A stretch of 52,322 bases of DNA from an uncultured Bacteroidaceae bacterium (lineage in GTDB: Bacteria; Bacteroidota; Bacteroidia; Bacteroidales; SM23-62). Below, in pieces: positions 22,067-38,607 of this stretch; position 1 is the first letter of the stretch; each line of letters opens with the position of its first letter. The translations under genes were made by a program, and so were the position numbers. The notes beneath the pieces were generated by a model. That model saw nothing but the letters and a program-made list of their open reading frames with translations, was not told the DNA's origin and did not search any database. The stretch is from the NCBI GenBank assembly GCA_964540005.1, contig CAZILN010000185.1, positions 1 through 52,322 of the forward strand. The letters run 5' to 3'.

Positions 22067-22101
22067 GCTAAACTGCTTAAGGCATTTTACGCCGGACCGG
22101 G

Positions 22102-23018: not shown

Positions 23019-23141
23019 AATACTGTTATTTTGATTGGTTTATCACTCTCAAAGAAAGCTGCCTCAAAATGCATTTTATTTCCAACCCCATTCCTTCTGA
23101 CTGGGAATTTCAACTGATCAATTATTCTGAGGCAGCTCCTG

Positions 23142-23949: not shown

Positions 23950-24026
23950 ATACAAAAAATTATTATATTTGTCCTGCAAAGATAATGCACATATGTGCAA
24001 AATCCAAATAATATAAAATAAATGTT

Positions 24027-24494
24027 ATGAAATTCTCCAGCGTATTATTTGTATCAGCGGGTATTTTAATAGCTACATGGTCTCCGGCTCAACGGACCGG
24101 CACTGGCGATCTTTGCCAGGCCATACCTGACCTTACCCCGGATCAGGAACAAAAAATTGATAAGCTGAGTGTTGCCCACCAGAAAGAAATGGATGATCTG
24201 CGTACGAAATTCTGGTCAGAGAATGATGCTGCACAGGCTACAGTAATTAAAACACAGATGAATACTGAGATGGAGAAGCATTACAAGAATATTTCCGCTT
24301 TGCTAACTCCTGAACAGCAAAGCTGGTATGACAGTAACTGTAATGTGAACAACAGATACTATTCCCGCAAAGGAGGTTCTGCCAGGTATGGCAGGGGTGC
24401 AGGACGCGGCAGGGGAATGGGTCCTGGCAGAGGCCTGGGAAGAGGCAGGAGTGCAGGACGCGGCAGGGGCCTTGGTCCGGGCCGGGGGTATTGA
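24027..24494 (+). CDS. Secreted Spy/CpxP-like (LTXXQ motif) protein with C-terminal Arg/Gly repeat tail
   Basis: Signal peptide, two LTXXQ motifs (LTPDQEQ, LTPEQQ), and the tail GRGAGRGRGMGPGRGLGRGRSAGRGRGLGPGRGY. Confidence 0.7.
   Translation: MKFSSVLFVSAGILIATWSPAQRTGTGDLCQAIPDLTPDQEQKIDKLSVAHQKEMDDLRTKFWSENDAAQATVIKTQMNTEMEKHYKNISALLTPEQQSWYDSNCNVNNRYYSRKGGSARYGRGAGRGRGMGPGRGLGRGRSAGRGRGLGPGRGY
24391..24490. repeat. 54-nt period tandem repeat encoding the GRG tail
   Basis: gtgcaggacgcggcagggg occurs at 24397-24415 and again at 24451-24469. Confidence 0.85.
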
Positions 24495-24562: not shown

Positions 24563-25243
24563 CTAACCTTTCTTACTTATGATCTCCAGCAGGTCTTTAT
24601 CCAGAATTTTTATCTTCCTGCCGCTCAGTTCTATTATCCCCGTATCATCAAATTCATTAAGAATGCGGCAGATGCTTTCCCGTGAAGTATTAATAAAATA
24701 CCCCAGTTCAAGTCTTGTTAAGGGTAATACAAATTCATCCTTTTCGTAGATCTCATCAGAGAAGAACAATAAGGCATCCGATGCACGGCCATGAATATAT
24801 TTCTGGGTTCGGTTTACACATTGATGAAATGAGTTCAGCTCATTGCGGCATAGTTCAATGATTATTTCGTAGGCAAAATTTCCGTTTGCAAAAATGAAGT
24901 CCTTAAATACATCAATATTAATAAAGCAGACTTTGGTATCTTCAACTGCCGTTGCAGAATATTGGTTGATCTTTTCACCAAAGGTCGTAGGGATACCCAG
25001 GTAGGATGGAGCTTTGGTAATCTTAATTATCTGCTCTTCAACCGGACCTGACATATGTATTTTAACAAGGCCGCTCCTGACATATATAATATTTGAAGAG
25101 AAGGCTCCCTGTTTAAAGATAACATCCCCCTTTCTGAAATTGACTATCACACAATTGTTCCCAAGTTTTTCCAGCTCATCTGTATTCAGAAATTTAACTG
25201 CAGATGATTGGATTTTACAATTCTTACAGATGCTCTCTTCCAT
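24563..25243 (-). CDS. Crp/Fnr family transcriptional regulator
   Basis: 226 aa with a cNMP-binding-like beta-barrel (FRKGDVIFKQG) and a C-terminal HTH (TSRESICRILNEF). The N-terminal CKNCK pair is reminiscent of Fnr-type Cys ligands, but the set is incomplete. Confidence 0.82.
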   Translation of the reverse strand: MEESICKNCKIQSSAVKFLNTDELEKLGNNCVIVNFRKGDVIFKQGAFSSNIIYVRSGLVKIHMSGPVEEQIIKITKAPSYLGIPTTFGEKINQYSATAVEDTKVCFINIDVFKDFIFANGNFAYEIIIELCRNELNSFHQCVNRTQKYIHGRASDALLFFSDEIYEKDEFVLPLTRLELGYFINTSRESICRILNEFDDTGIIELSGRKIKILDKDLLEIISKKG

Positions 25244-25283
25244 GATTTCTTAAAAACTAATAAAGCACAAATATATATATAAA

Positions 25284-25299
25284 TGTGATCTATATCACA
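25284..25299. promoter_or_regulatory. Crp/Fnr-type operator TGTGATCTATATCACA (TGTGA-N6-TCACA)
   Basis: The 6+6 palindromic arms TGTGAT/ATCACA are perfect. The site is 41 nt from the regulator ATG and about 100 nt upstream of the DsrE-like gene. An extra half-site ATATCACA lies at 25314-25321. Confidence 0.7.
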
Positions 25300-25397
25300 A
25301 AATGATTTACTTCATATCACAGATCTTTTCTGCTCTTCCTCCCGATTAATACACAATTTTATCCCCTGATTAAATTAAAAACTAAAGATTCAGGATT

Positions 25398-25823
25398 ATG
25401 GAAAACAAAAAAATGGTAATGGCTCTTTTTTCAGGAAGCTTAGACAAACTAACCTGTGCAGGTGTTATACTCAGTGGTGCTGCGGCTGATGATATGGAAG
25501 TCGATATTTATGTACTGCTGCAGGGCGCCCGGGCCTTCAAAAAGGAAATTGCAAAAAATACGGATAAGCTGGCTATGGCAGAGAATCCTCATCTAAGAGA
25601 AGAGTTCATACAATCATTAGAGCAGCTCAAGGTAAAACCATGGCATGAATTTTTTAAGGAAGCCAAAGAACTTACCAGCGTTAAGATTCACGTTTGCGGG
25701 TTGGCCGGGAAGCTCTGGGGAGGTGAAAAAATTGATGACTTCATTGATCTTGCCGACGATATATGCGGTATAGGGGAATATGTCTCAGCTGCACAGGAAG
25801 CTGATGTGCACCTGTTTATCTAA
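25398..25823 (+). CDS. DsrE/DsrF-like family protein
   Basis: 141 aa. MALFSGSLDKLTCAGVILSGAAA and the HVCGLAG pattern match the DsrE-like peroxiredoxin-family fold commonly paired with TusA. Confidence 0.65.
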   Translation: MENKKMVMALFSGSLDKLTCAGVILSGAAADDMEVDIYVLLQGARAFKKEIAKNTDKLAMAENPHLREEFIQSLEQLKVKPWHEFFKEAKELTSVKIHVCGLAGKLWGGEKIDDFIDLADDICGIGEYVSAAQEADVHLFI

Positions 25824-25887
25824 ACAGCAATCATTAGCTGTAACGAAATATAGGTAACTGTAATAATAAATTACTAAATCTAACATC

Positions 25888-26139
25888 ATGGAAGCACAAG
25901 AATTAAGCGGTCTTACAGTAAATAAAGTTGTTGACGCCCGTGGAACGGCATGTCCAGGTCCACTGCTGGCAGCTAAAAAAGCCATTGCAGAAATCGGCTC
26001 GGGTGATATTATGGAGATACTATCTTCAGATGAAGGAACAAGACGGGATATCCCGAAATGGGCCGGTAAGAAGGGTCATGAGTATCTGGGGACCCTTGAA
26101 GAATCGGGTTATTTTAAGATCTACATGAAGAAACAATAA
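25888..26139 (+). CDS. TusA/SirA-like sulfurtransferase
   Basis: 83 aa. DARGTACPGPLLAAKKAI carries the Cys-Pro-x-Pro active-site motif. Confidence 0.85.
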   Translation: MEAQELSGLTVNKVVDARGTACPGPLLAAKKAIAEIGSGDIMEILSSDEGTRRDIPKWAGKKGHEYLGTLEESGYFKIYMKKQ

Positions 26140-26144
26140 GGAGG

Positions 26145-26546
26145 ATGGAGGGCTCAGAAGGTAAGAATTCTCCAAAGATCCTGGTATTCTCAACAGAAAA
26201 GATCTCAGATCCTGCTATAGACCTTGCCGGTTTGCTTAAAATGCACTATCCGCCAACGGTCTGCACTATAAGTATTCCCTGCTCCAGCGCTGTCAAACCC
26301 AGGTGGATCATGCATGCCTTTGAGAAGGGTTACGACGGTGTTTTTATTGCAGCTGACGGCACGGATTGCCCGTACAGCGATAGTTGTACCGACAATACGG
26401 CCTGGATTGTCGGGCAAACCCATGAGCTGATGAAGGAGAAAGGTTTGAAGCCTGAAAGACTGAGGATGGCTGCCATCTGTTCCGTGTGTTCGGAGCCCTT
26501 TGTCAGGCAGATGAAAACCTTTGCAGAATCCTTCTCGGGATCTTAA
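26145..26546 (+). CDS. MvhD/FlpD-like (methyl-viologen-reducing hydrogenase delta subunit) domain protein, Cys-depleted variant
   Basis: KILVF...AIDLAGLLKMHYPP...IPCSS...HAFEKGYDGVFIAADGTDCPY aligns to the MvhD pattern I recall (CNWCSY...VMCSG...GCHxGDCHY). The first CxxC is replaced by STEKIS and the GCH Cys is absent. A GGAGG Shine-Dalgarno lies upstream. Confidence 0.7.
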   Translation: MEGSEGKNSPKILVFSTEKISDPAIDLAGLLKMHYPPTVCTISIPCSSAVKPRWIMHAFEKGYDGVFIAADGTDCPYSDSCTDNTAWIVGQTHELMKEKGLKPERLRMAAICSVCSEPFVRQMKTFAESFSGS

Positions 26547-26556
26547 AAGCATTGTT

Positions 26557-27858
26557 ATGACAGAATTAACAGCAGATTATGATGTTCTGGTCATCGGGGG
26601 AGGCATAGCCGGGGAAGAGGCTGCCTTAAACCTTGCATATTCGGGTTTTAAGATCCTGCTTGTTGAGAAGGATTTTTCAATCGGTGGCAAAATGATCCAC
26701 CTGAGCAAGGTTTTTCCCACCCTTGACTGCGCTGCCTGCATCACCACACCAAAAGTATCGGAAACGGTCAGGCATCCGAATATTACCATATTTACCAGCT
26801 CTGAGGTCCGGGATATAGAAAAGCAAGCGGACAATAGTTTTTCCTTCACCCTGGTTGAAAACCCGAGATACGTGACAGATGATTGCACAGGCTGCCAGGT
26901 CTGTGAGGAAAAATGTCCCATCGTTGTGGATGACCAGTATCAATGGGACCTGGTAGGCAGAAAAGCAATATATATACCATTCAGTATTGCGAGTCCGCGC
27001 ATCGCGGCTATTGATATCGAGAATTGTATACTCTGTGGATTATGCGAGAAATTATGTCCTGCGGACGCTATTGACTTTACCCAGGAAATAAGACAGAGTA
27101 CTGTTACAGTCAGATCAATCATCTTCGCAACCGGTTTCAGGCTTTTCGATCCGCTGCAAATGCCACGGTACGGTTTCGGACAATATAAGAATGTGGTTAC
27201 TTCCATGCAAATGGAAAGACAGCTGGTTCCCACCCGGCCGTATAACACCGTACTGCGTCCGGGGGACGGCAAAGTACCTGATAATATTGCCTATGTCCTG
27301 TGTACAGGTTCCCGCGATGAGAGCATCGGAAACCCTATCTGTTCCCAGGTTTGCTGCATGTATTCCATTAAGCAGGCACAACTGCTGATGGGTGCCTTAC
27401 CCATGGCCGATATTACTATTTATTATATCAATATAAGAGCCTTTGGTAAAGGATTCAATGAGTTTTATGAACAATCAAAAGATATGGGGGTTGAATTCGT
27501 AAAGGCAAAAATTGCAAAAATCGACAAAAAAGAGAACGGAAACCTGGTCCTAAGGTATGAAGACATTAAGGAAGCGAAAATTATGGAGACCGAACATGAT
27601 ATGGTAGTATTATCGATTGGTTTTCTCGCAAATACTGAGTTCTCAGGGATGTTTAAAAATGATTCGGTTGAAGAGGACAGTTATCATTTTATAAAACAAA
27701 CGCAGGTATTGGCCAGTCCGGCAAAAACAAGCATTGAAGGGATTTTTGTTGCCGGAACTGCATCAGGACCCATGGATATTCCTGACTCTATCCTGTCTGC
27801 CGGGGCAGCTTCTTCCGAAACGGCCGGTTATATCAGGAGGCTTAGCAATGAAGAATAA
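26557..27858 (+). CDS. HdrA-like FAD/Fe-S oxidoreductase, short form (QmoA-like architecture)
   Basis: The start is reassigned to MTELTADYDVLVIGGGIAGEEAA (FAD dinucleotide fold). Also present: LDCAACITTPK, the ferredoxin insert CTGCQVCEEKCP / CILCGLCEKLCP, CSQVCCMYS and FVAGTASGPMDIPDS. 433 aa. Confidence 0.85.
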   Translation: MTELTADYDVLVIGGGIAGEEAALNLAYSGFKILLVEKDFSIGGKMIHLSKVFPTLDCAACITTPKVSETVRHPNITIFTSSEVRDIEKQADNSFSFTLVENPRYVTDDCTGCQVCEEKCPIVVDDQYQWDLVGRKAIYIPFSIASPRIAAIDIENCILCGLCEKLCPADAIDFTQEIRQSTVTVRSIIFATGFRLFDPLQMPRYGFGQYKNVVTSMQMERQLVPTRPYNTVLRPGDGKVPDNIAYVLCTGSRDESIGNPICSQVCCMYSIKQAQLLMGALPMADITIYYINIRAFGKGFNEFYEQSKDMGVEFVKAKIAKIDKKENGNLVLRYEDIKEAKIMETEHDMVVLSIGFLANTEFSGMFKNDSVEEDSYHFIKQTQVLASPAKTSIEGIFVAGTASGPMDIPDSILSAGAASSETAGYIRRLSNEE

Positions 27859-29782
27859 AATAGGTGTATATATCTGTCAGTGTGGTTCAAACATCTCCGA
27901 TTATGTTGATGTAGAAAAAGTCAAAGATATTGTATCCGCACGGGACGGGGTCAAACTGGCAAAAACAACCATGTTTGCCTGCGCAGATTCGGTCCAGAAA
28001 GAGATCGTCCAGGATATACAAGAAAACGAACTGGATGCTATTGTTATCGCTTCCTGTTCACCGAAACTGCATTTATTCACCTTTCGTGCTGTGGCTGAAC
28101 GTGCCGGCCTGAATCCCTATAATTATGTCCAGGTAAATATACGTGAACAATGTTCATGGGCCCATTCTGACAATCCGGTCAAAGCCACGGATAAAGCAAT
28201 CCGGCTGATCGAAGCAGGTATAGCACGGGTCAGGCATTCTGCAGCACTGGAGAAAATTAAGATCGAAGCTCAGAATACTGTTGTAGTTGTTGGCGCCGGC
28301 ATAGCAGGCATGCGTGCCGCTATTGAACTTGCTGATATGGGATCACAGGTCTTTTTGATTGAAAGGGAATATTATACAGGGGGCAGGCTTGCTCAATGGA
28401 ATGAACTTTATCCCAGCAGCGAATCCGGACACGATATCATCGCCGGGCTTTATAAGCAATTGATCAATCACAGGAACATAAGAGTTTATACCGGGGCGGA
28501 GATTGTTTCAAATACGGGAATTATGGGTGACTATACAATAGAAGTCAGCATCAGGCCCAGGTATATCAGTACGGATACCAGGATAGATGCTGCAGTGCTG
28601 CAGAAGGCTATAGATGCCTGTCCTGTTGAAACAGATGATGATTTTAATTTTAATCTTACCATTAGGAAGGCCATTTATAAAAACCCTACGGGCACATATC
28701 CTGACATACCTGTAATCGATGTTGGATCCTGCAATAAATGCGGTGAATGCCTTAAAATATGTAAGGATATAGATCTTGAACGAAAATCCGAAACAGTAGA
28801 GATCCATGCAGGGGCCATTTTACTGGCAACCGGTTTCGACCTTTATGAACCCCAGCCCGGGGAGTTTGCTTACTCCCGGATAGACAATGTTATTACATTT
28901 CAGCAATTCAGGCGGTTGATAGAACTGAATGAAAAGGAGCTGGTTTATAAGAACAGGACTATCAGGAACATCGCCTATATATACTGCGTGGGGAGCCGGC
29001 AGGCAGATAATGGCAATAAATATTGCTCACGTTATTGTTGCACGGCTGCCATCCATTCAGCTATCCTGGCAAGGAAAAAATACCCCGGCATAAATAATTT
29101 TCATTTTACCAGGGGGATAAGGACATACGGTAAACAGGAAGTGATATACCAGGAAAGTCTGAATAATGGTGACCTGTTCATGCAATCCTTCGAAGATGAT
29201 CCCCCTGTAGTAGAAAAACAGGGTAATGAGACTATTGTAAAGATCAGGGATGTTCTGACTGAAAACACAGAACTTGAAGTGAGTGCAGACCTGGTTGTGC
29301 TGATTACCGCTATGGTTCCCCGTAAGGATAATTCCATAGCCGGTATCCTGAAAGTTCCCCTCGGGCGTGATAATTTTTTCAATGAAATTCATCCAAAACT
29401 CCGTCCTGTTGAGACAGTTATCGATGGCGTGTTTATTGCAGGGGTTTGCCAGGGACCAAAAAACATAACTGAATCAGTACAATCGGCATTATCTGCCGCA
29501 TCAAAAGCATATTCCATGCTCAGCAAAGGGGAAATAGAACTGGAACCCACCCTTGCCAGGATAGATAAGAGCCTTTGTCAGTGGTGTGATAAATGCCTGG
29601 AAGTATGTCCCTATGATGCAATTGTTAAAACAGAGCATGAAGGCAAAACGGTAGCTGTTGTTAATGAGCCAAACTGTAAGGGCTGTGGGATGTGCTTACC
29701 GGTTTGTCCGGAAAATGCAATTGATCTTATTGGTTATACGGATAAGGAAATTGAAAGTATGATAGATGCCATGGCGGAATAA
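27848..29782 (+). CDS. hdrA: HdrA-like heterodisulfide reductase subunit A homologue, long form
   Basis: The start is reassigned to MKNKIGVYICQCGSNI (HdrA N-terminal domain) and overlaps the previous stop by 11 nt. It has a FAD fold VVVVGAGIAGMRAA, CSRYCCTAAIH, the insert CNKCGECLKIC and the C-terminal 2x[4Fe-4S] CQWCDKCLEVCP / CKGCGMCLPVCP. 644 aa. Confidence 0.88.
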   Translation: MKNKIGVYICQCGSNISDYVDVEKVKDIVSARDGVKLAKTTMFACADSVQKEIVQDIQENELDAIVIASCSPKLHLFTFRAVAERAGLNPYNYVQVNIREQCSWAHSDNPVKATDKAIRLIEAGIARVRHSAALEKIKIEAQNTVVVVGAGIAGMRAAIELADMGSQVFLIEREYYTGGRLAQWNELYPSSESGHDIIAGLYKQLINHRNIRVYTGAEIVSNTGIMGDYTIEVSIRPRYISTDTRIDAAVLQKAIDACPVETDDDFNFNLTIRKAIYKNPTGTYPDIPVIDVGSCNKCGECLKICKDIDLERKSETVEIHAGAILLATGFDLYEPQPGEFAYSRIDNVITFQQFRRLIELNEKELVYKNRTIRNIAYIYCVGSRQADNGNKYCSRYCCTAAIHSAILARKKYPGINNFHFTRGIRTYGKQEVIYQESLNNGDLFMQSFEDDPPVVEKQGNETIVKIRDVLTENTELEVSADLVVLITAMVPRKDNSIAGILKVPLGRDNFFNEIHPKLRPVETVIDGVFIAGVCQGPKNITESVQSALSAASKAYSMLSKGEIELEPTLARIDKSLCQWCDKCLEVCPYDAIVKTEHEGKTVAVVNEPNCKGCGMCLPVCPENAIDLIGYTDKEIESMIDAMAE

Positions 29783-29799
29783 GGATAAAAATTTCGGAA

Positions 29800-30075
29800 A
29801 TGAAAAAAACAATTGATCATATCAAGGAGAAAAGGACGGTTTCCGAGGAATTAAAAGAAAAGCGTAAAGAGGACAACAGGATCAATAAACTGATCCTTAA
29901 AGCACTTGAATCCGGACCAAAGACCATTCCCCGGATTGCAGGGGAAACCGGGCTCGCGGAAGATATTGTTACCTATTATCTGATGACCCTCAGGAAATAC
30001 GGAAAGCTGGAAACCGGAGAGATTGATGATATGGATGAGTATTTCAACTATAAACTGAAACAGAAAAATGAATAA
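29800..30075 (+). CDS. Small winged-helix DNA-binding-like protein
   Basis: 91 aa. ILKALESGPKTIPRIAGETGLAEDIVTYYLMTLRKYGKL resembles a wHTH (ArsR/MarR-like) core. It is the last gene of the HdrA operon. Confidence 0.55.
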   Translation: MKKTIDHIKEKRTVSEELKEKRKEDNRINKLILKALESGPKTIPRIAGETGLAEDIVTYYLMTLRKYGKLETGEIDDMDEYFNYKLKQKNE

Positions 30076-30248
30076 CAAAGTGCCAATAAATCAAAGAGTT
30101 AATTCATTTGAAATTATTTACTGTTGAATTTTACGCCATATGCTGTATATTTCAACACTCCCTCTAAGTATTTAATTACCAGGTTAGTACAATGATCAAT
30201 TATTTCAGGTGTTGATATTCTCAGCAGTTTATCACCTGGACAGGCTTT

Positions 30249-30279
30249 TTGTACATCAATGTAAGATATTGATATACAA
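30249..30279. promoter_or_regulatory. Imperfect palindrome TTGTACATCAAT-N7-ATTGATATACAA (candidate enhancer-binding-protein site)
   Basis: 12-bp arms with one mismatch, centred about 42 nt upstream of the GG of the putative -24 element. Confidence 0.45.
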
Positions 30280-30304
30280 TGCAATATGACCTGTTTTTTT
30301 AGTT

Positions 30305-30319
30305 TGGCACCATGTTTGG
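30305..30319 (+). promoter_or_regulatory. Candidate sigma-54 (-24/-12) promoter TGGCAC-N5-TTGG
   Basis: TGGCACCATGTTTGG matches the consensus TGGCAC-N5-TTGC with correct spacing and one mismatch at -12. It lies about 60 nt upstream of the ATG at 30381, and a sigma-54 activator is encoded in the same locus. Confidence 0.55.
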
Positions 30320-30380
30320 GATACCTGCTCAAAAGAAAGTTTACGGCAGTTCAGATGCCACCAACTAAAATTTGAGAAAA

Positions 30381-32066
30381 ATGAAAACAATTATTGTATT
30401 GATTTCAACAGTAACACTTCTGACTGCAACATTTGCAAATGGAGTGTCAAAAGGGAAAAGCCAACCCGCGACAGACTCCATTCATATCCTGTGTAGTCCC
30501 GACCTGGTGGAAATAGCCGGCACATGGGCTGCAAAATACACAAGTGATAATCCGGGAGCCGGCCTGTCGGTAAGCAGGATACCTGACCAAGGCTTGGATG
30601 ATATGTTGCAGACCGCCGGTACTATCTCTCTTGTCAGTAAGAAATACCTCCCTAATGCAGCCGGCCAGCGAACATGGAAGATGGTAGTAGGCCGGGATGT
30701 TGTTGTACCTGTTATGAATTCTGAAAACCCATACAGGGAGGAGATATTGCAGAAAGGGATCTCGCCTGAGGAATTTGCCGAACTTGTCAGTACTCCGGGC
30801 CGGCTTAGCTGGGGAATACTATTGAACAATACAGTTTCAGATCCTGTTAGGCCTTATTCTGCTAGCGATCAGTCTACCAGGACTTACCTGGCTGAATTCC
30901 TTGAGATAGATCAGCATTATATCACAGGGATAGAAACTGAAAATGCAGATGAGATGCTGAACTGCATCAGAAATGACAGGTTTGCCATTGGCTTTTGCCG
31001 GCTGACGGATATACTGGAGACCGGGGACAATGAAGTTATACCTGGAATAAGCCTTATACCGGTTGACAAGAACGGGAATGATCAGCTTGACCTTTTTGAG
31101 GATATTTATAATAATACCGGTGAACTGACCAGGGGTATCTGGATTGGCAAGTACCCGGGTACCTTATACAGCAGGTTGTATATGGTGGCCGCTGCCCGGC
31201 CGACCAGCGATAATGAACTGGCATTTATGGAATGGCTTGTCACCGAAGGTCAGCAATACCTGCCGGAGGATGGGTTCACAAGCCTGATTTACAGTGAGAG
31301 GCAATCTATGCTGCATAGTATTTATGACTACGGCATCCCTGTTGTTGATGTTCCTGTCAGAAGGGCTTCACAGCTAAAGTTATTCCTGATTATTACCGGA
31401 GCACTGCTGCTTGTTGCCATAATCCTTTATTTGCTTGCCAGGATCTTCAGGACCGGGAAATGGGAGGATGAAACAGTCGATGTCTGCCGCCTGTCTGTTT
31501 TCAGGGAAAACGCTGTTACATTTCCTACAGGATTATTTTTTGATAAAACTCATACATGGACCTTTATGGAAAAAGACGGCCGGGTACGAACCGGTATTGA
31601 TGATTTTCTTCAGCATGTAACAGGCCCCATTACAAGGGTGAAAATGAAGAAAGCCGGCGACAGGGTCGTTAAAGGAGAAACATTCCTTTCACTGATCCAG
31701 CGAGGCAAACAACTTGATATTCAATCGCCTGTATCAGGGATCATCAGGGAACAGAATTCAGAACTGGTTGCAGACTCGGAAACAATTAATGATGCTCCCT
31801 TTTCCGCTGGCTGGGTGTATGTAGTTGAACCCGGCAACTGGCTGAAAGAGATCAATACTTATCTCATGGGGGATAAGTACAGGGAATGGTTAAAAACCGA
31901 ATTTTCACGACTGAAGAATTTCCTGGCATCGGGCTTAAAACCCATGGAAACCGTAAATCCTGAACTCGTATTGCAGGATGGGGGTGAGATCAGGGACGGG
32001 GTACTTGAGTGTTATGGCCCGGAGGCATGGGAAGAATTTCAGTCCGGGTTCCTGCATACGGTTTGA
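30381..32066 (+). CDS. Fusion protein: signal peptide - PstS-like periplasmic binding domain - TM helix - GcvH-like domain
   Basis: ATG at 30381 (MKTIIVLISTVTLLTATFA) is preferred. The PBP-like N-terminal half includes IHILCSPDLVEIAGTWAAKY and VGRDVVVPVMNSENP. One TM helix (LFLIITGALLLVAIILYLLARIF) follows. The C-terminal part, HTWTFMEKDGRVRTGIDDFLQHVTG...GKQLDIQSPVSGII...PFSAGWVYVVEP, aligns along its length to the glycine-cleavage H-protein fold. Confidence 0.7.
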   Translation: MKTIIVLISTVTLLTATFANGVSKGKSQPATDSIHILCSPDLVEIAGTWAAKYTSDNPGAGLSVSRIPDQGLDDMLQTAGTISLVSKKYLPNAAGQRTWKMVVGRDVVVPVMNSENPYREEILQKGISPEEFAELVSTPGRLSWGILLNNTVSDPVRPYSASDQSTRTYLAEFLEIDQHYITGIETENADEMLNCIRNDRFAIGFCRLTDILETGDNEVIPGISLIPVDKNGNDQLDLFEDIYNNTGELTRGIWIGKYPGTLYSRLYMVAAARPTSDNELAFMEWLVTEGQQYLPEDGFTSLIYSERQSMLHSIYDYGIPVVDVPVRRASQLKLFLIITGALLLVAIILYLLARIFRTGKWEDETVDVCRLSVFRENAVTFPTGLFFDKTHTWTFMEKDGRVRTGIDDFLQHVTGPITRVKMKKAGDRVVKGETFLSLIQRGKQLDIQSPVSGIIREQNSELVADSETINDAPFSAGWVYVVEPGNWLKEINTYLMGDKYREWLKTEFSRLKNFLASGLKPMETVNPELVLQDGGEIRDGVLECYGPEAWEEFQSGFLHTV

Positions 32067-32113
32067 TAAGACAAAAAAGTTATTTAACATAATTAATTTA
32101 TTCTAATCTGATA

Positions 32114-32989
32114 ATGGGAATCAATCGACGAAATTTTTTCAAAGTACTTGGTTTGACAGGCGTATCACTGGGAACAGGCAAGAAGCTTGTTGCCATGCCT
32201 GATCAGGGAGATGATAAGGAATTCCGGGCCATCCTCTATGATGCAACCCGTTGCGGGGGGTGCCAGAGTTGTGAACTTGTATGTGCCTGGGAACATGATT
32301 TGCCTGAACCGGATCCTGAGGATATCCCCGTAGCGGGGATTCTCCGGAAGACCAATGAAAACAGGCGTTCTGTAATTAATGCTTATGAGACTTCCAGGGG
32401 GGAAGTATATGTTAAAAACCAGTGTATGCAGTGCAATCAGCCTGCCTGCGCTGCTGCCTGCCTGACCAGGGCCATGTATAAAACCGAGGAGGGACCCGTA
32501 ATCTGGAGGGGTGATAAGTGCATGGGCTGCCGGTACTGCATGGTCTCCTGTCCCTTTGATGTGCCTAAATTCGAATACAACAGTCCGAACCCTAAAATTG
32601 AAAAATGCAATATGTGTTTTGAAAAGGTAAAAGAGGGTGAGCTACCGGTCTGTGTCGAGAACTGCCCGGCTGAGGCCCTTACATTCGGGACCCGAAGGGA
32701 GCTGATTGCCGAGGCGCACAGGAGGATACATGATGACCCTGATCTGTACTATGACGGGGTTTATGGTGAACATGAAGCAGGAGGAACAGGATTTTTATAT
32801 CTCTCACCGGTCCCTTTCGAGGAGCTGGGATTCAATACCTCACTTCTGGACAGGCCTTATCCTGAATTAACAAAAGGATTCCTGTACTCTGTGCCTACAA
32901 TTTTTGTTTTGTGGCCCGCATTGTTACTGGGAATACACAATTCAACAAAGAATAATTCAAATAAGCCTGACCAGGATGAAGATGAATAA
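32114..32989 (+). CDS. NrfC/DsrO/HybA-type periplasmic 4x[4Fe-4S] ferredoxin subunit with Tat signal and C-terminal TM anchor
   Basis: Tat motif INRRNFFKVLGLTG. Four Cys clusters: CGGCQSCELVC, CMQCNQPACAAAC, CMGCRYCMVSCP and CNMC...CVENCP. Hydrophobic tail VPTIFVLWPALLLGI. Confidence 0.85.
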   Translation: MGINRRNFFKVLGLTGVSLGTGKKLVAMPDQGDDKEFRAILYDATRCGGCQSCELVCAWEHDLPEPDPEDIPVAGILRKTNENRRSVINAYETSRGEVYVKNQCMQCNQPACAAACLTRAMYKTEEGPVIWRGDKCMGCRYCMVSCPFDVPKFEYNSPNPKIEKCNMCFEKVKEGELPVCVENCPAEALTFGTRRELIAEAHRRIHDDPDLYYDGVYGEHEAGGTGFLYLSPVPFEELGFNTSLLDRPYPELTKGFLYSVPTIFVLWPALLLGIHNSTKNNSNKPDQDEDE

Positions 32990-34211
32990 AGCAGATTATA
33001 TCTTACCGCAAGATAATGACGGCAGGCCGGTTGTCAAATTCCTGGCTGCCGAACTCAAACCCAGGGGCAGGTTCCTGACTCCCTTCAATATCATTTCCTT
33101 ACCAATCATGATCCTAGGCATTGTGTTGATAGTCATTCGTTTTGCCAGGGGTATAGGTTCCATTACCAACCTTACCCAGGAAGTGCCCTGGGGCCTGTGG
33201 ATAGGATTTGATGTGGTAACAGGTGTTGCATTTGCCGGCGGAGCCTATGTTATAACATTCCTGGTCTATATTCTGAATGTGAAAAAGTATCATTCGATTG
33301 TCAGGGTGACAGTATTGAACGGGTTCCTGGCCTATGTATTTTATGCCGGTGCACTGCTTCTTGATCTTGGAAGACCATGGAATGTCATAAATCCTATCAT
33401 AGGGAACAGTTTCGGTGTCAGTTCTGTTCTGTTTCTTGTTGCCTGGCATTTCCTGCTTTACATGATAGCCCAGCTTATAGAATTCTCCCCGGCAATTGCC
33501 GAATGGTTAGGAGCCAGAAAAGCCAGAAAGATACTTTCGGGTATGACACTTGCCGCTGTCATTTTCGGAATCACCCTTTCCACTTTGCACCAGTCAGGTT
33601 TGGGAGCGCTGTACCTTATGGCCAAAGAAAAGATACATCCCTTGTGGTATTCTGAATTCATTCCCATCCTGTTCTTTGTGTCCAGCATTTTCGCAGGCCT
33701 GTCCATGGTGATTTTTGAAGGCTCGATCAGCCAGAAAGTCTTTTTTAAACAGATCAGTCCTGAGAATCATAAAACACACAATGGGATCCTGCATGGTTTG
33801 TCAAAGATTTGTGCCTTTACCCTCTTTGTATACTTTTTCCTGCAACTGCTTGTATTTGTACACGGACAGCACTGGGATCTGATTGGTACACCTATGGGTT
33901 ACTGGTACCTGACCGAGATGCTGGGATTTGTTCTGGTACCCATGCTGCTCTTTTTCTACAGTTACAGGAAACAGAACATTTTCATGATCAAGCTTGCCGC
34001 AATCATTACCATGCTGGGAGTAATAATAAACAGGCTGAACGTCACCGTCATTGGATTTAAATGGGATGCTGCTAATCATTACTATCCTTCATGGATGGAA
34101 ATTGTTGTAACGCTGACCGTCCTTTTTATCGAGATATGGATTTTCAGGTGGATAGTGAATCGCCTGCCGGTACTCAGGGACCCCCCGGCCTGGGCAAGGG
34201 AAAGTAATTAA
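32976..34211 (+). CDS. NrfD/PsrC/DsrP-type integral membrane quinone-interacting subunit
   Basis: The start is reassigned to MKMNKADY and overlaps the NrfC-like stop. About 410 aa, 8-10 TM helices, and the family-typical blocks WGLWIGFDVVTGVAFAGGAY and LGRPWN. Confidence 0.82.
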   Translation: MKMNKADYILPQDNDGRPVVKFLAAELKPRGRFLTPFNIISLPIMILGIVLIVIRFARGIGSITNLTQEVPWGLWIGFDVVTGVAFAGGAYVITFLVYILNVKKYHSIVRVTVLNGFLAYVFYAGALLLDLGRPWNVINPIIGNSFGVSSVLFLVAWHFLLYMIAQLIEFSPAIAEWLGARKARKILSGMTLAAVIFGITLSTLHQSGLGALYLMAKEKIHPLWYSEFIPILFFVSSIFAGLSMVIFEGSISQKVFFKQISPENHKTHNGILHGLSKICAFTLFVYFFLQLLVFVHGQHWDLIGTPMGYWYLTEMLGFVLVPMLLFFYSYRKQNIFMIKLAAIITMLGVIINRLNVTVIGFKWDAANHYYPSWMEIVVTLTVLFIEIWIFRWIVNRLPVLRDPPAWARESN

Positions 34212-34231
34212 GAACTATAAATAGTAAAAAA

Positions 34232-34951
34232 ATGAACGGATTTACATATACTGATATTTTTGACACCAAAGGCATTGAATACCTGATAATAATAGGGTTC
34301 CTGCTGTTGATCATTCCCGTATGGATACTGATAAACAGGCCCCTGAACCTGGGAATGAAAGTCAGGGAGGCGCTGGGGACACTGACAGATCGTATACTGC
34401 GCATCCCCCAGGGATTGTTCTACAGTAAAAATCATACCTGGACCTACCTGGAGAAATCGGGACTGGCAAGGGTGGGGATAAATGATCTCCTGCAGCATAT
34501 TACAGGCAGGATAGAACTGAACGATCTGCATGTTCCGGGGGAAAGGATAAATAAGGGCGATGTAATTGCACGGATCATACAGGATGGTAAGCACCTGGAC
34601 ATAACTTCTCCCATTTCCGGGGAGATACAGAAAGTTCATACCTCATTGGAACAGGATTCTGGCACCATCAATAAGGACCCATATGGTGAAGGCTGGATAT
34701 ATAAGATCAAACCGCATAGGTGGCTTGACGACACCTTTAGCTGTTACCTGGCTGGAGAAGCTACCGAATGGCTGAATAAGGAACTGAGAAGGTTTAAGGA
34801 TTTCCTGCTTGAAGCAATTAACCGTGATGCACCGGAATCATCTGCGGTAATAATGCAGGAAGGGGGAGAAATGTCCGATAATCCGCTTTCAGGAATGAGT
34901 AAGACAATCTGGAATGACTTCCAGAAAATGTTCCTCGACACAATAGACTGA
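34232..34951 (+). CDS. Membrane-anchored GcvH-like protein (paralogue of the C-terminal half of the 30381 fusion)
   Basis: N-terminal TM helix (IEYLIIIGFLLLIIPVWILI), then YSKNHTWTYLEKSGLARVGINDLLQHITG...GKHLDITSPISGEI...PYGEGWIYKIKP. This aligns to E. coli GcvH (YSKEHEWL...VGIT...ESVKAASDIYAPVSGEI...PYAGGWIFKIK) and continues into a tail shared with the fusion protein (EWL..EL.R.K.FL). Confidence 0.75.
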   Translation: MNGFTYTDIFDTKGIEYLIIIGFLLLIIPVWILINRPLNLGMKVREALGTLTDRILRIPQGLFYSKNHTWTYLEKSGLARVGINDLLQHITGRIELNDLHVPGERINKGDVIARIIQDGKHLDITSPISGEIQKVHTSLEQDSGTINKDPYGEGWIYKIKPHRWLDDTFSCYLAGEATEWLNKELRRFKDFLLEAINRDAPESSAVIMQEGGEMSDNPLSGMSKTIWNDFQKMFLDTID

Positions 34952-35046
34952 AAAGTGTCAGTTAAAGAGATATAGATACAATCAATTTATGTAAATTTTA
35001 AAGATAATTTGAATCCCGGTCGACCCTGATATAAAATGACGCAAAC

Positions 35047-36717
35047 ATGATCGGTCCTGTTTATAGCTTTTTTAAAAAAACACTGGAAAGGAAACCGATA
35101 AGAAATTTCGTAAGATTCAGATCTTCGATCTATGGACGGGTCGTGCTTATCAGTGCCGGTTCGCTTATTGTCCTCTTTGTTCTCTTCAACATTGTTTTCA
35201 GGTCAGTTTATGTCGAATTTTTCAACAGGACAATTCGCCAGAACGGTGATCACATCAGCTCAATCGTCGAGGGAGCTTTGTACTATTCCATGCTGGAGAA
35301 TGACAGGGGGATGCTCCAGCGGACACTCGATATTATCAGTACCATGTCGGATATCGACGAGGTGAATATGTATGATGACATCAATAATCTTGCTTATACA
35401 ACCGCCCCTGCAGAGCTGGAAAACCGGGGAAATCCGAACTGCAATGAATGCCATGAAGATCTCGGAGCCATGTTCTCTTACAGGGAAAATGCATACAGGA
35501 TTGCTGATAATATACCCGAATGCGGGATCTACCAGAATACAAATAAAAGCAGGCATTTACTGATCAGGACGCCAATCCTTAATGAACCATCCTGTTATAC
35601 GGCAGCATGCCATGCACACTCAGAAAGTGATGTAGTACTTGGTTCTCTTTTGATCAACCTTCCGCTTGTGGATCTGGATGCATTCGTTGATGAATCATCG
35701 ACAAATTTTCTTTTCCTGGCTACCTTAATAACCATATTTCTCGTTACATTCCTAATCGTGTTTACCAGGAAAAGGATAAAGGATCCGCTCAATTCAATTA
35801 TTGAAGCCAGCGAAGCCGTATCCAACGGAGATAATAACATAAGGCTGGATATAAAACCCGGACTTCTTGATGATATGAGAAAGGTTTCACTTGCCTTCAA
35901 TAATATGCTTGATAATATTGATTCGGCAACTAAAGAATTACAAAACTGGTCACAACAGCTCGAATATAAGGTACAGAAAAAAACAGAGGAATTATCGGAA
36001 GCCCAGAACGAACTGATACATGTGGAAAGAATTGCATCCCTGGGTAAGCTCTCATCCTCAGTCGCACATGAGATCAATAACCCCCTGTCAGGGATCCTGG
36101 TGTATACTAAGTTGATACACAAACAATTAAGTAGTCCTGAATTCTATCATTCAAAAAAAGAATCCATCCTTAAAAACCTGACTTTAATTGAAACTGAAAC
36201 CAAACGCTGCGGCGACATAGTGAAGGGCTTACTTGATTTTTCGAGACAGGACAGGGATGATTTTGAGGTGTCACACCTTCATCAGCTCCTTGATGAAACA
36301 TACAATCTGATGACCCATTCCATCAAGATCGCAGACATCCGTTTTACCACCGATTATAATGCGGTCTCTGACATGGTTTTCTGCAGTCCGAACCAGGTGA
36401 AACAGGCTTGTATCGCACTGCTGGTGAATGCCTCGGAAGCCATACAGGAGCATGGTGAAATTAATATTAAAACATACAATCCGGATACGGATCACATAAG
36501 GGTTGATTTTTCAGATAACGGATCGGGGATCGCTCAGCAGGATCTGCCTCATATTTTCGAACCCTTTTTCTCAACCAAGCGTGAAGCGAGGGGTATCGGG
36601 CTGGGACTTTCCATCGTTCATGGGATTGTTGAAAATCATAAAGGCCGTATCGAAGTGGACTCAGAGCCGGGTGCAGGTACCACAGTCACAATAATTTTTC
36701 CTTTATCGGAAAATTAA
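35047..36717 (+). CDS. Sensor histidine kinase with periplasmic domain carrying c-type haem-binding motifs, plus HAMP, HisKA and HATPase
   Basis: Two TM helices flank a domain of about 170 aa containing CNECH (nt 35440-35454, CXXCH) and CYTAACH (nt 35593-35613, CX4CH). HAMP and a coiled coil follow, then the H-box SSVAHEINNPLS and the G-boxes DNGSGI and GIGLGLSIV. Confidence 0.8.
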   Translation: MIGPVYSFFKKTLERKPIRNFVRFRSSIYGRVVLISAGSLIVLFVLFNIVFRSVYVEFFNRTIRQNGDHISSIVEGALYYSMLENDRGMLQRTLDIISTMSDIDEVNMYDDINNLAYTTAPAELENRGNPNCNECHEDLGAMFSYRENAYRIADNIPECGIYQNTNKSRHLLIRTPILNEPSCYTAACHAHSESDVVLGSLLINLPLVDLDAFVDESSTNFLFLATLITIFLVTFLIVFTRKRIKDPLNSIIEASEAVSNGDNNIRLDIKPGLLDDMRKVSLAFNNMLDNIDSATKELQNWSQQLEYKVQKKTEELSEAQNELIHVERIASLGKLSSSVAHEINNPLSGILVYTKLIHKQLSSPEFYHSKKESILKNLTLIETETKRCGDIVKGLLDFSRQDRDDFEVSHLHQLLDETYNLMTHSIKIADIRFTTDYNAVSDMVFCSPNQVKQACIALLVNASEAIQEHGEINIKTYNPDTDHIRVDFSDNGSGIAQQDLPHIFEPFFSTKREARGIGLGLSIVHGIVENHKGRIEVDSEPGAGTTVTIIFPLSEN

Positions 36718-36727
36718 GAAATATATA

Positions 36728-38065
36728 ATGAATGAAAAAGTTACCATTTTAATCGTGGATGATGAGGAGTCAGTCAGGGATTCACTATACGACTGGTTCA
36801 TTGATGATGGATATTATGTTGAAACCGCTGAAGATGCGAAGAAAGCCCTCTCCATCCTTGATGAGAAGGAATTTGATATTGTACTGGCCGACATTAAAAT
36901 GCCGGGGATGGATGGTATGGAATTGCATAAACGTATCAAAACAATGTCCAGGGAACCCATCTTCATAATCATGACAGCCTTTGCTTCGGTTGATACGGCG
37001 GTCCAGGCCCTGAAAAACGGAGCATTCGACTATGTCACCAAACCTTTCGACCCTGATGACCTGTCCCATCTGATCAGAAATGCGGCCACACAGGTGTCTT
37101 TAAGGGCTGAAAATGAAACCTTGAAGAAAAACATCACCTCTCTTGTCGATGTGGAAGATATCGTCGGGAAGAGTGAAGCCCTGAAGAATGTTCTCAAAGA
37201 AGTTGAAAGTGTTGCCCAGTCTAATTCTTCCATTATTATCTGTGGGGAAAGCGGTACCGGGAAAGAATTAATTGCCAGGGCCATTCATTCCAATTCATCA
37301 CGGAAATATTTCCCCATGGTCAGCGTTCATTGTGGTGCCCTGACTGAGAGCCTCCTTGAGAGTGAACTCTTCGGTCATGAAAAAGGTGCTTTTACCGGTG
37401 CTTCTTTTAACCGTAAAGGAAGGTTCGAAATGGCTGACGGCGGAACGATCTTCCTGGATGAGATCAGTACCATTACCTCCAAAATGCAAATAGAATTGCT
37501 CAGGGTCCTGGAATCCAAGACATTTGTCAGGGTTGGGGGAAACAAGGAAATGACCTCTGATTTCCGGGTTATCTGTGCCACCAACAGGGACCTGAAGAGC
37601 ATGGTAAACAGCGGTACCTTCCGTAAAGATCTCTACTACAGGTTGAATGTGGTAACCATCAGGATCCCTCCGCTGCGGGACAGGGTTGAGGATATTCCAT
37701 TGCTGGCGGATCACTTTATCAGGAAGTATTGTACATCGATGAGCCGGGACCTGATATCAATTGAACCGGCGGCCCTCAGGCACCTGGAAGAACTGGAATT
37801 CCCCGGTAATGTTCGTGAACTGGAGAACATGATCGAACGGGCCATCGTAATAGGAAACGGGAAGGAGATCAGGTTAAAAGACCTTCCTATGGGTAAGGAG
37901 GTCATAAGCAGTTCCATTGAAAGCCTGGAAGATCTTGAAAAGAAGCATATCCTGAAGATACTGGACAAATATTCATGGAATATTTCGCGTACTGCCAAGG
38001 CCTTGCATGTCGACAGGGCTACTCTCTATAACAAGATCAAGAAATATAAACTGGAGCAGGAGTGA
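36728..38065 (+). CDS. Sigma-54-dependent response regulator (NtrC/Fis family enhancer-binding protein)
   Basis: Receiver domain (DDEESV, DIVLADIKMPGMDG). AAA+ core with Walker A GESGTGKE and the sigma-54 contact loop GAFTGA. C-terminal Fis-type HTH (NISRTAKALHVDRATLYNKIKK). Confidence 0.9.
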   Translation: MNEKVTILIVDDEESVRDSLYDWFIDDGYYVETAEDAKKALSILDEKEFDIVLADIKMPGMDGMELHKRIKTMSREPIFIIMTAFASVDTAVQALKNGAFDYVTKPFDPDDLSHLIRNAATQVSLRAENETLKKNITSLVDVEDIVGKSEALKNVLKEVESVAQSNSSIIICGESGTGKELIARAIHSNSSRKYFPMVSVHCGALTESLLESELFGHEKGAFTGASFNRKGRFEMADGGTIFLDEISTITSKMQIELLRVLESKTFVRVGGNKEMTSDFRVICATNRDLKSMVNSGTFRKDLYYRLNVVTIRIPPLRDRVEDIPLLADHFIRKYCTSMSRDLISIEPAALRHLEELEFPGNVRELENMIERAIVIGNGKEIRLKDLPMGKEVISSSIESLEDLEKKHILKILDKYSWNISRTAKALHVDRATLYNKIKKYKLEQE

Positions 38066-38070
38066 TTTGA

Positions 38071-38607
38071 TTGGATAAACAGAAAATTATATTAATAGCC
38101 TGCGGTCATTTTGAGAAAAACCAGACAGGCGGGATAGAAGAAAAAATAGAGCAAAGCTTTCATTATCCTGTGGAGCTGATAGAATGCAATCTTGATATCA
38201 GTCGTTTCTATAATCCGGGCCGCCGGCAGTATAATGCCAATGAATTAATGGCTGTTGTGTCAAACTCTTACCTTCCCGGTTCATTAAAAATAATGGGATT
38301 GTTCAGGGTGGACCTGTATATACCCATCCTGACCTATATCTTCGGCCAGGCTCAATTAAAGGGTCAGACCGGGATCGCTTCTCTTTACCGCCTCAGAAAC
38401 GAACTGTACGGCCTCGAACCGGACCACAGCCTGCTGAGCGAACGATTCACCAAGGTCATCATTCATGAACTGGGACATATGTTTGGCCTGATCCATTGCA
38501 ATTACCCGGTCTGCGTCATGCGCTCCAGCACTTATGTTGAGGACTTGGATCAGAAAGAGATCCATTTCTGCCACAGCTGCCAGGCAGAGCTTAGCCGCCT
38601 TCAATAA
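38071..38607 (+). CDS. Archaemetzincin-like zinc metallopeptidase (peptidase family M54-like)
   Basis: HELGHMFGLIHCNYPVCVM...CHSC follows the archaemetzincin signature HExxHxxGxxxCxxxxCxM...CxxC. TTG start 5 nt after the regulator stop. 178 aa. Confidence 0.75.
   Translation: MDKQKIILIACGHFEKNQTGGIEEKIEQSFHYPVELIECNLDISRFYNPGRRQYNANELMAVVSNSYLPGSLKIMGLFRVDLYIPILTYIFGQAQLKGQTGIASLYRLRNELYGLEPDHSLLSERFTKVIIHELGHMFGLIHCNYPVCVMRSSTYVEDLDQKEIHFCHSCQAELSRLQ

Follow-up and report, generated by a model that had tools for sequence, protein, structure and literature searches.

The window analysed here, a stretch of 52,322 nucleotides on contig CAZILN010000185.1 of an uncultured Bacteroidaceae bacterium (assembly GCA_964540005.1), contains 13 plus-strand genes and a divergent Crp/Fnr gene. 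An original prediction made from the sequence had read these 13 genes as one functional redox and sulfur-relay system. According to the present analysis, it is probable that they are two independent transcription units, referred to as module A and module B, which became neighbours in this genome by an insertion or deletion. The independence of the two modules, based on the synteny of their flanks and their separate cis-elements, can be stated with high confidence.

25398-30075, plus strand: module A, in the order DsrE-TusA-MvhD-HdrA(short)-HdrA(long)-winged helix-turn-helix (wHTH) protein, with a divergent Crp/Fnr gene and operator
30305-38607, plus strand: module B, consisting of PBP-GcvH, an HmcB/HybA-like protein, an HmcC/HybB-like protein, TM-GcvH, a di-haem sensor kinase, a sigma-54 activator and an archaemetzincin

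Both modules are conserved and uncharacterised and are worth following, module B above all. They are common in uncultured Bacteroidales, Marinilabiliales and Prolixibacteraceae of sediment and groundwater, and no published function was found for either. Neither arrangement was described in the full-text literature searched, which agrees with the earlier claim of an undescribed arrangement and is not proof of absence. The novelty is real, yet smaller than claimed and of a different kind. Co-orientation and short gaps in one genome were misleading, and the apparent 13-gene system was split in two by comparative synteny.

Separation of the two modules

The coordinates and domains of the 13 genes and the Crp/Fnr gene were verified by a six-frame listing of open reading frames and by profile hidden Markov model searches against Pfam and NCBIfam. 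The 13 co-oriented genes, their named domains and the two start/stop overlaps given in the original prediction were all borne out, and the thirteenth gene, left unnamed there, was identified as an archaemetzincin of family M54. For comparison, 80 metagenome loci around relatives of the DsrE-like protein (flanks up to 10 kb) were sampled for module A, and 80 genome loci around relatives of PBP-GcvH (flanks of 10 kb) for module B. All window proteins were mapped on both samples.

Among the 53 module B loci with at least 7 kb of sequence upstream of PBP-GcvH, module A is found nearby in just one (L062), where it is inverted and about 4 kb away. Of the 21 module A loci whose downstream sequence reaches 4 kb or more, not one has module B, recognised by its HmcBC/GcvH block, behind module A. 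Elsewhere, module B sits among unrelated housekeeping genes, for example purL and a beta-lactamase-family gene. The original prediction had made the linkage depend on the co-occurrence of the two halves in related genomes; as neighbours they were seen together in L062 only.

The junction can be compared with the closest relative, L003, whose HmcC is 91% identical. In the window, the Crp gene is preceded by a gene for an LTXXQ (Spy/CpxP-like) periplasmic protein with a low-complexity Gly/Arg-rich tail (24027-24494). In L003, the LTXXQ gene occupies positions 1-470 and lies about 1 kb from module B, with no Crp gene or module A between them, and the regulatory region aligns to window positions 30100-30380. 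Therefore, the Crp gene and module A (24563-30075) represent an insertion or deletion between collinear segments, with LTXXQ marking the left breakpoint. The L003 sequence from LTXXQ to module B is partly masked (a run of N) and holds an unrelated minus-strand open reading frame. The two-unit reading is also supported by the fact that each module has its own conserved regulator and cis-element. The 296-bp gap between the modules holds the conserved sigma-54 promoter and the upstream activating sequences (UAS) of module B, and a search for further Crp or sigma-54 sites linking the two modules found none. A scan for sigma-70 promoters and terminators, with a model not built for Bacteroidota promoters, gave counts that did not differ from those of shuffled sequences.

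That all 13 genes nevertheless form one sulfur-relay respiratory system, in which HmcBC provides the membrane link otherwise made by QmoC/HdrBC and the GcvH-like domains behave like the LbpA lipoate-binding partners of sHdr, is considered very unlikely. In the window the modules adjoin each other in the same orientation, and they are also close to each other in L062, a distantly related genome; two juxtapositions in about 100 loci are slightly above chance, and this weak hint of some association speaks against complete independence. Module A in the window is without QmoC or HdrBC while module B supplies a quinone module, and the GcvH domains keep an invariant Lys at or beside the lipoyl position. 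Apart from the rare adjacency, the indel relative to L003 and the separately regulated gap, however, the other QmoC-less module A loci (L088, L095, L100-L105) have no adjoining module B. HmcB is exported to the periplasm by the twin-arginine translocation (Tat) route, whereas the Hdr, TusA and DsrE proteins and the GcvH domains are cytoplasmic, and NrfD is without cofactors to carry electrons across the membrane. Moreover, the HdrA proteins are of the methanogen/Qmo type and not of the sHdrA type, and lipoate-maturation genes are absent from the locus.

Genes and control of module A

24563-25243, minus strand: Crp/Fnr-family regulator (cNMP_binding and HTH_Crp_2; best NCBIfam match Fnr)
25284-25299, unstranded: Crp-type operator TGTGATCTATATCACA, a perfect palindrome and the single such site in the window
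25398-25823, plus strand: DsrE-like sulfur carrier (DrsE_2; PF13686, E = 1e-9)
25888-26139, plus strand: TusA sulfur carrier (PF01206, 78.7 bits)
26145-26546, plus strand: MvhD-like [2Fe-2S] protein, a separate 133-aa gene (PF02662 FlpD, 100 bits)
26557-27858, plus strand: short HdrA (QmoA-like, 433 aa), aligning to residues 146-562 of HdrA in 5ODC (E = 4e-106)
27848-29782, plus strand: full-length HdrA (QmoB-like without fused MvhD, 644 aa), aligning to residues 5-639 of 5ODC (E = 1e-130)
29800-30075, plus strand: small Cys-free winged-helix-like protein with weak HTH matches, the last gene of module A in this genome

The Pfam matches and the 5ODC alignments uphold the DsrE-like, TusA, MvhD and HdrA assignments made earlier, and the small wHTH protein is present as well. 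Conserved cysteines can be observed in all three small carrier and electron-transfer proteins. In the DsrE-like protein, Cys100 (IHxCxLAGK) and Cys123 (DDICGIGEY) are invariant across orthologues; the TusA active-site motif C-P-G-P, with the CPxP cysteine, is kept in orthologues, and so are the Cys residues of the MvhD-like protein, which corresponds to the C-terminal MvhD domain of HdrA2. About 30 loci keep the wHTH-like gene behind long HdrA, and DDMDEY is an invariant motif of its product.

The genes of the two HdrA paralogues overlap by 11 bp (27848/27858). Short HdrA is without the N- and C-terminal domains and retains FPTxDCxxC, two ferredoxin motifs and CxGxRD..CSxxCC. Long HdrA has an N-terminal CxCGxNI cluster domain and a C-terminal 2x[4Fe-4S] (ferredoxin) domain, and FPTxDCxxC is missing from it. 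This motif is present in 38/39 orthologues of short HdrA and retained by just 1/34 orthologues of long HdrA. In the 5ODC structure, the FPTxDCxxC cysteine reportedly completes the N-terminal cluster of the partner protomer. If this sharing of clusters is right, the complementary motif loss suggests that the two paralogues form an obligate heterodimer.

Most module A loci have a Crp gene in the same divergent position. Of the 27 distinct intergenic regions between Crp and DsrE, 20 contain TGTGA-N6-TCACA when up to one mismatch is allowed, and four others have TGTTA-N6-TAACA. Taken alone, TGTGATCTATATCACA could be due to chance, as a shuffled sequence often yields a match, and the same is true of the module B promoter TGGCACCATGTTTGG described below; both are judged to be real because of their conservation in related loci. 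The predicted Crp/Fnr regulator with a perfect operator is supported by these data. Additionally, a sigma-54 activator paralogue (39-41% identical to that of the window) adjoins module A in L115 and L149, with no Crp gene detected beside the operon, which indicates that the regulation of module A may differ among lineages.

Module A in related genomes

The genes of module A were found together, as one block, in 42 metagenome loci. In 26 loci, a further gene comes after that of the wHTH protein; its product, about 350-380 aa long, combines an HdrC-like 2x[4Fe-4S] N-terminus with a membrane domain of several helices. This QmoC-like protein matches NCBIfam QmoC (NF038018) over its full length with 172 bits, under the equivalog cutoff of 300. 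In the variants L104 and L123, HdrC and a CCG-domain HdrB-like protein end the operon, replacing the wHTH and QmoC-like genes; among the module A loci, HdrB-like (CCG) and HdrC proteins are found only there. These two loci and L127 encode, in place of short HdrA, a protein of about 910 aa into which a GltD/NfnB-like NAD(P)H-binding module (Fer4_20 and Pyr_redox_2) is inserted.

In the window, no homologues of HdrB, HdrC or QmoC were found by tblastn with related-locus sequences, only generic ferredoxin motifs being matched, and no window protein has a CCG domain by profile search. The usual partners are thus absent here, as the original prediction had said; but this absence is a feature of the lineage, and in most relatives a QmoC-like gene stands behind that of the wHTH protein. 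Neither QmoC-like nor HdrBC proteins were recorded for the window and the loci closest to it in module A (the L088, L095 and L100-L105 group), though L104 was itself noted with HdrC and an HdrB-like protein. The missing QmoC/HdrBC of the window is regarded as a lineage-specific loss.

An extended form of the locus is seen in about eight cases (L086/L087, L126, L128, L133, L143, L146 and L168). There, a second copy of TusA, a YeeE/YedE-family transporter, three or four rhodaneses and a porin are located immediately upstream of module A. Signal or lipoprotein peptides are present in three of the rhodanese families, and some loci add a second DsrE and extra Crp paralogues. This set of transporter, rhodaneses and TusA would fit a pipeline that imports sulfur of the thiosulfate/polysulfide type and hands sulfane sulfur to TusA and DsrE.

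The window also has an anaerobe-typical minus-strand cluster (19533-24000), which encodes DUF134, DUF5320 and NifU_N proteins, two NifX-like (Nitro_FeMo-Co) proteins and a pair of MinD/ParA-type ATPases into which 4Fe-4S ferredoxin domains are inserted. In L114, L121, L123/L124, L135 and L148, too, DUF134 is encoded near module A.

Possible role of module A and comparison with known systems

Module A is tentatively interpreted, at somewhat less than even confidence, as a complex of the Qmo/Hdr type in electron exchange with sulfane sulfur on its carriers, most likely in the reducing direction and with ferredoxin as a partner. It would be a cytoplasmic flavin/iron-sulfur complex of the Hdr/Qmo kind, in which the HdrA paralogues pair as a heterodimer, each holding what the other has lost, and MvhD docks on the pair. 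This complex may trade electrons with the sulfane sulfur that TusA and DsrE carry in persulfide form. The likeliest direction would be reduction to sulfide, which could serve as an electron sink in these anaerobes, and ferredoxin could be one of the partners by way of the ferredoxin domain at the C-terminus of long HdrA. The QmoC-like subunit of most relatives would connect the complex to the menaquinone pool, and a few relatives would use HdrBC; the complex of the window, with neither, would probably be soluble.

Several points weigh against this interpretation. The reaction is guessed from neighbouring genes, and the window genes appear to have no obvious S-S catalytic site; neither an HdrB/CCG domain nor a redox-active CxxC was identified in module A as encoded in the window, and no membrane link is encoded in it. 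MvhD normally docks hydrogenase or formate dehydrogenase, and neither enzyme is encoded near MvhD here.

Judged by their defining features, module A belongs to none of QmoABC, HdrABC-Mvh and sHdr-LbpA, and it is most like a Qmo/Hdr complex. The likeness to QmoABC is greatest for 'type II' QmoAB, which is nearer to HdrA and occurs in organisms without Dsr/Apr, where its role is unknown (PMC10504309). In both cases, a short and a long HdrA-derived flavoprotein are encoded side by side and an MvhD module is present. Furthermore, the QmoC-like fusion of HdrC and membrane domain in 26 relatives and HdrBC in some others show the same alternation as in sulfate reducers, since substitution of QmoC by HdrBC is known in Gram-positive members of that group (PMC10504309). 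The differences are that MvhD is a separate gene, the first of the MvhD-HdrA-HdrA set, and is not fused to the QmoB C-terminus (long HdrA stops after the ferredoxin domain); that a small wHTH-like protein is encoded between long HdrA and QmoC in the relatives; that the neighbours are TusA and DsrE (plus YeeE and rhodaneses) and not AprAB/Sat; and that the window copy is without QmoC, while the QmoC-like protein of the relatives remains under the family cutoff. No Apr or Sat genes are present in the window, and AprAB, Sat and Dsr do not recur as a shared family in the module A flanks of up to 10 kb.

With HdrABC-MvhAGD of methanogens (5ODC), module A shares MvhD, a long HdrA that aligns end to end with its cluster motifs kept, and the FAD-proximal CxGxRD..CSxxCC cluster motif, found in both paralogues. 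In contrast to the methanogen complex, the window has neither HdrB/HdrC, which hold the catalytic heterodisulfide site, nor Mvh hydrogenase, and module A has two differentiated HdrA paralogues instead of a homodimer, in a bacterial setting with sulfur-carrier neighbours. The sHdr-LbpA systems of Hyphomicrobium and Acidithiobacillus (PMC6067878, PMC11094781) are similar in combining TusA and DsrE-family sulfur transferases with an Hdr-like flavoprotein, and GcvH-fold proteins occur in the vicinity. sHdrA (6TJR), however, is short and non-bifurcating, and the window HdrA proteins match it much worse (E = 1e-25 to 7e-41, versus 1e-106 to 1e-130 with methanogen HdrA). sHdrB1B2C1C2 and lipoate-maturation genes are absent from the window locus. 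LbpA is small and soluble, whereas the GcvH-fold proteins of the window are membrane-tethered, belong to another operon and are conserved without Hdr genes.

For the same reasons, it is highly improbable that module A is an ordinary Qmo complex serving adenosine 5'-phosphosulfate (APS) reductase in sulfate reduction or sulfite oxidation, or a sulfur-oxidising complex of the sHdr type. The pair of QmoA-like and QmoB-like HdrA proteins, the QmoC-like gene of the relatives and the exchange of QmoC for HdrBC all agree with the first, and the company of TusA and DsrE agrees with the second, sHdr systems being accompanied by both (PMC11094781). Yet the flanks are without a shared AprAB, Sat or Dsr family, the QmoC-like protein scores well below its cutoff, the HdrA proteins match the methanogen type far better than sHdrA, and HdrB1B2C1C2, LbpA and lipoate-maturation genes are absent from most module A loci.

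If the reading of module A as a sulfane-sulfur-linked Qmo/Hdr complex is true, the Hdr/Qmo flavoprotein toolkit, possibly with electron bifurcation, would be extended to protein-persulfide carriers in fermentative Bacteroidota. It would be relevant to cryptic sulfur cycling, to sulfur as an electron sink and to the role of 'type II' Qmo without Dsr/Apr.

Genes and control of module B

30122-30216, unstranded: probable UAS half-sites for the sigma-54 activator (TGTTGAA at 30122, TTCAACA at 30151, TGTTGAT at 30210)
30305-30319, plus strand: sigma-54 (-24/-12) promoter TGGCAC-N5-TTGG, TGGCACCATGTTTGG, conserved upstream of PBP-GcvH
30381-32066, plus strand: PBP-GcvH (GCV_H and PBP_like_2), with signal peptide, periplasmic PstS-type domain, transmembrane (TM) helix, cytoplasmic GcvH-fold domain and conserved C-terminal extension
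32114-32989, plus strand: HmcB/HybA-like periplasmic 4x[4Fe-4S] protein with Tat signal and C-terminal TM anchor (HmcB 311 bits, cutoff 420; HybA 214, cutoff 263)
32976-34211, plus strand: HmcC/HybB-like quinone-interacting membrane subunit of the NrfD family (HmcC 401 bits, cutoff 550; HybB 260, cutoff 450; Pfam NrfD)
34232-34951, plus strand: TM-GcvH (239 aa), with N-terminal TM helix, cytoplasmic GcvH-fold domain and C-terminal extension as in PBP-GcvH (GCV_H 74 bits)
35047-36717, plus strand: sensor histidine kinase (Pfam), with periplasmic PAS/Cache-like domain carrying CxxCH and Cx4CH (di-haem c), HAMP, HisKA and HATPase
36728-38065, plus strand: NtrC-type sigma-54-dependent response regulator (Response_reg, Sigma54_activat at 233 bits, HTH_8)
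38071-38607, plus strand: archaemetzincin-family (M54) Zn peptidase, which ends module B (NF033823 162 bits, cutoff 145)

The database gene call of PBP-GcvH has 561 aa, implying an ATG at 30381. In its AlphaFold2 model (mean predicted local distance difference test score, pLDDT, 78), the binding domain matches phosphate-binding proteins (PstS-type), and the GcvH domain superposes on the H-proteins of E. coli and Thermus with a TM-score of 0.9 and a root-mean-square deviation of 1.4-1.8 Å. The helical C-terminal extension is without known relatives. Its GK motif, which includes K446, is invariant. The binding domain shows no obvious anion-binding motifs of the canonical PstS kind. A nearly invariant D-x-N-x-N-x3-D-x2-E loop (PIDxNGNxxxDxxExIY) at D232-E243 (31074-31109) resembles an EF-hand-type Ca2+-binding loop.

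TM-GcvH is a paralogue of the C-terminal half of PBP-GcvH and keeps GK.L.I.SP.SGE in 67 orthologues. Only these two architectures exist among 288 representatives of the GcvH-like family (E <= 1e-30), and an exhaustive search of 1.84 billion representatives found no other fusions of the family, apart from a few proteins of about 455 aa with an unassigned N-terminus. PBP-GcvH itself has more than 860 homologues, all from Bacteroidota where named, and at least 448 GTDB species genomes encode a relative. The GcvH-fold assignments are supported by Pfam and by fold, and such GcvH-like membrane proteins are new. Both H-protein domains are predicted to be cytoplasmic from the signal peptide of PBP-GcvH and the charges flanking the TM-GcvH helix. 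The GcvH equivalog scores (57-76 bits) are under the cutoffs of 116-117, with the H-protein fold matched, and no GcvTPL genes are nearby. Both proteins have an unvarying Gly-Lys at the hairpin where H-proteins bear the lipoyl-lysine. HMMER aligns the invariant Lys onto the lipoyl-Lys of Thermus GcvH (1ONL) with a one-residue gap, and its lipoylation is possible.

The HmcB-like protein has 16 Cys (four cubane clusters) and an RRxFxK twin-arginine motif, all invariant in 73 orthologues, and the HmcC-like protein is 58-91% identical across loci. Their genes overlap (32976/32989). The pair had originally been called NrfCD. Membership of the NrfD family stands, whereas NrfC, at 86 bits, is surpassed by HmcB and HmcC, and the pair is better described as HmcBC/HybAB-like.

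Both haem motifs of the kinase are retained in 63/66 orthologues. The AlphaFold2 model of its sensor domain (pLDDT 75) is PAS/Cache-like, with weak fold matches to WalK and to the Geobacter haem-c sensors GSU0935/GSU0582 (for the latter, E = 3e-4 with a low TM-score). Sequence searches of PDB and Pfam with this sensor domain and with the GcvH C-terminal extension gave nothing or a weak sCache_4 match. The activator comes after the kinase in every locus extending far enough. In the archaemetzincin, HExxHxxGxxH and four Cys are kept in 57 orthologues, and loci without HmcBC retain its gene as well. The analysis brought up no other gene context of archaemetzincins in bacteria.

As to control, all features of an NtrC-type two-component system were found: a HisKA/HATPase kinase, a regulator with REC, AAA+ and HTH_8 domains, and a -24/-12 promoter nearby. 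The promoter pattern TGG[CT]A[CTA]-N5-TTG was found in 71/76 loci in the 200 nt preceding the PBP-GcvH gene, compared with 1.8% of random 220-nt windows. The haem-motif kinase, the sigma-54 activator and the sigma-54-like promoter of the original prediction are all upheld. The 8-mer ATTCAACA/TGTTGAAT is likely to be the activator site; in related loci, 47 of the 71 sequences that precede the -24 element contain it. The intact palindrome TGTTGAA-N4-TTCAACA is not present in the regulatory region of the window, which has half-sites only.

Distribution of module B and comparison with known systems

The full seven-gene module B is present in 51 of the 55 Bacteroidota genome loci with enough sequence. 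Metagenome-assembled genomes labelled Draconibacterium and Mariniphaga are among its carriers. Six loci (L014, L031, L033, L055, L060 and L073) are without HmcB, HmcC and TM-GcvH together, so that PBP-GcvH is directly followed by the kinase and activator; the TM-GcvH gene is absent whenever HmcBC is absent. Four of the six show M54, while the sequence of L014 and L031 stops earlier, and three of them belong to the 55 counted.

Module B is not Hmc, Hyb or Nrf, with which it has only the two-subunit FeS/NrfD core in common. The best family matches are HmcABCDEF of Desulfovibrio and HybOABC (E. coli hydrogenase 2), both of which combine a Tat-exported, anchored 4x[4Fe-4S] subunit with an NrfD-type membrane subunit. 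In contrast to these systems, the module B subunits score under the equivalog cutoffs, the HmcA cytochrome, HmcDEF and the hydrogenase subunits are absent, the partners are two H-protein-like membrane proteins, and control is exerted by a di-haem kinase and a sigma-54 activator. No cytochrome, hydrogenase or HdrD-like gene was found in the seven-gene block across the 51 loci. An NrfABCD module was rejected, as NrfC remained far below its cutoff of 378 bits, only the general NrfD Pfam family was matched and no multihaem reductase is present. Like Geobacter GSU0935/GSU0582 (3B42, 3B47), the kinase is a signalling protein whose periplasmic PAS/Cache-like domain bears motifs for covalent c-type haem and has a TM helix on either side. 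Those proteins, however, are chemoreceptors with one haem each, whereas module B encodes a histidine kinase with CxxCH plus Cx4CH.

Possible roles of module B

Module B may be a HybAB/HmcBC-type menaquinone-to-periplasm module that is switched by the haem kinase and sigma-54 and has an accessory or sensory pair of H-protein-like proteins; this is favoured with some hesitation, at roughly one chance in three. The kinase would sense the periplasmic redox state through its two c-type haems and phosphorylate the activator, which would bind the TGTTGAA/TTCAACA sites and fire the sigma-54 promoter. The output would be a module for electron transfer between menaquinone and a partner in the periplasm whose gene lies elsewhere. 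The pair of H-protein-like domains tethered to the membrane, one of them joined to a periplasmic oxyanion-type binding domain, could be accessory or signalling partners. On the other side, it must be considered that module B encodes no periplasmic catalytic subunit and that an ungapped alignment with pea H-protein puts the invariant Lys one residue off the lipoyl-Lys. In addition, NrfD proteins are not known to carry cofactors able to reach cytoplasmic GcvH domains, and a link between HmcBC and these domains is for this reason without a known mechanism.

Two other explanations have to be weighed. The invariance of PBP-GcvH, kinase and activator in the six loci without HmcBC and TM-GcvH implies that the sensor-like genes are the core of the module, which might then serve mainly for signalling: HmcBC would wire the menaquinone pool to the kinase haems, PBP-GcvH would be a ligand co-sensor, the archaemetzincin would process the tethered GcvH domain, and the targets would lie elsewhere in the genome. 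HmcB partners a multihaem cytochrome in Hmc complexes, and the kinase is the sole haem protein in module B; it is also more conserved (69-93% identity) than PBP-GcvH (40-77%). Nevertheless, HmcBC would be unusually costly as a sensor accessory, the kinase occurs without HmcBC too and so can sense alone, H-protein domains and archaemetzincins have no known precedent in signalling, and the sigma-54 promoter is located immediately upstream of the module B operon itself. A mainly signalling role is therefore held to be unlikely. Still less probable is an undescribed membrane complex, present in hundreds of anaerobic Bacteroidota species, in which possibly lipoylated, tethered H-protein domains couple the HmcBC-type quinone module and the periplasmic oxyanion-binding domain to cytoplasmic thiol/sulfur chemistry; here it would cooperate with the QmoC-less module A, the GcvH domains serving as LbpA-like acceptors.

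Module B joins an NrfD-type quinone module, membrane-anchored H-protein domains, a haem-based sensor kinase and an archaemetzincin. New roles of the H-protein fold could be revealed by either module.

Neighbouring genes

Flanking genes of the ECF sigma, FecR and SusC type are characteristic of the phylum Bacteroidota, and every named homologue comes from Bacteroidales or related orders. Further away from the two modules, a radical SAM protein, a major facilitator superfamily transporter, a CGGC-domain protein and an ARMT1-like damage-control phosphatase are encoded in tandem on the minus strand (13016-16533). The segment 47351-51358 encodes a CheB-CheR fusion protein of 854 aa that has PAS domains at its C-terminus and, after it, a histidine kinase.

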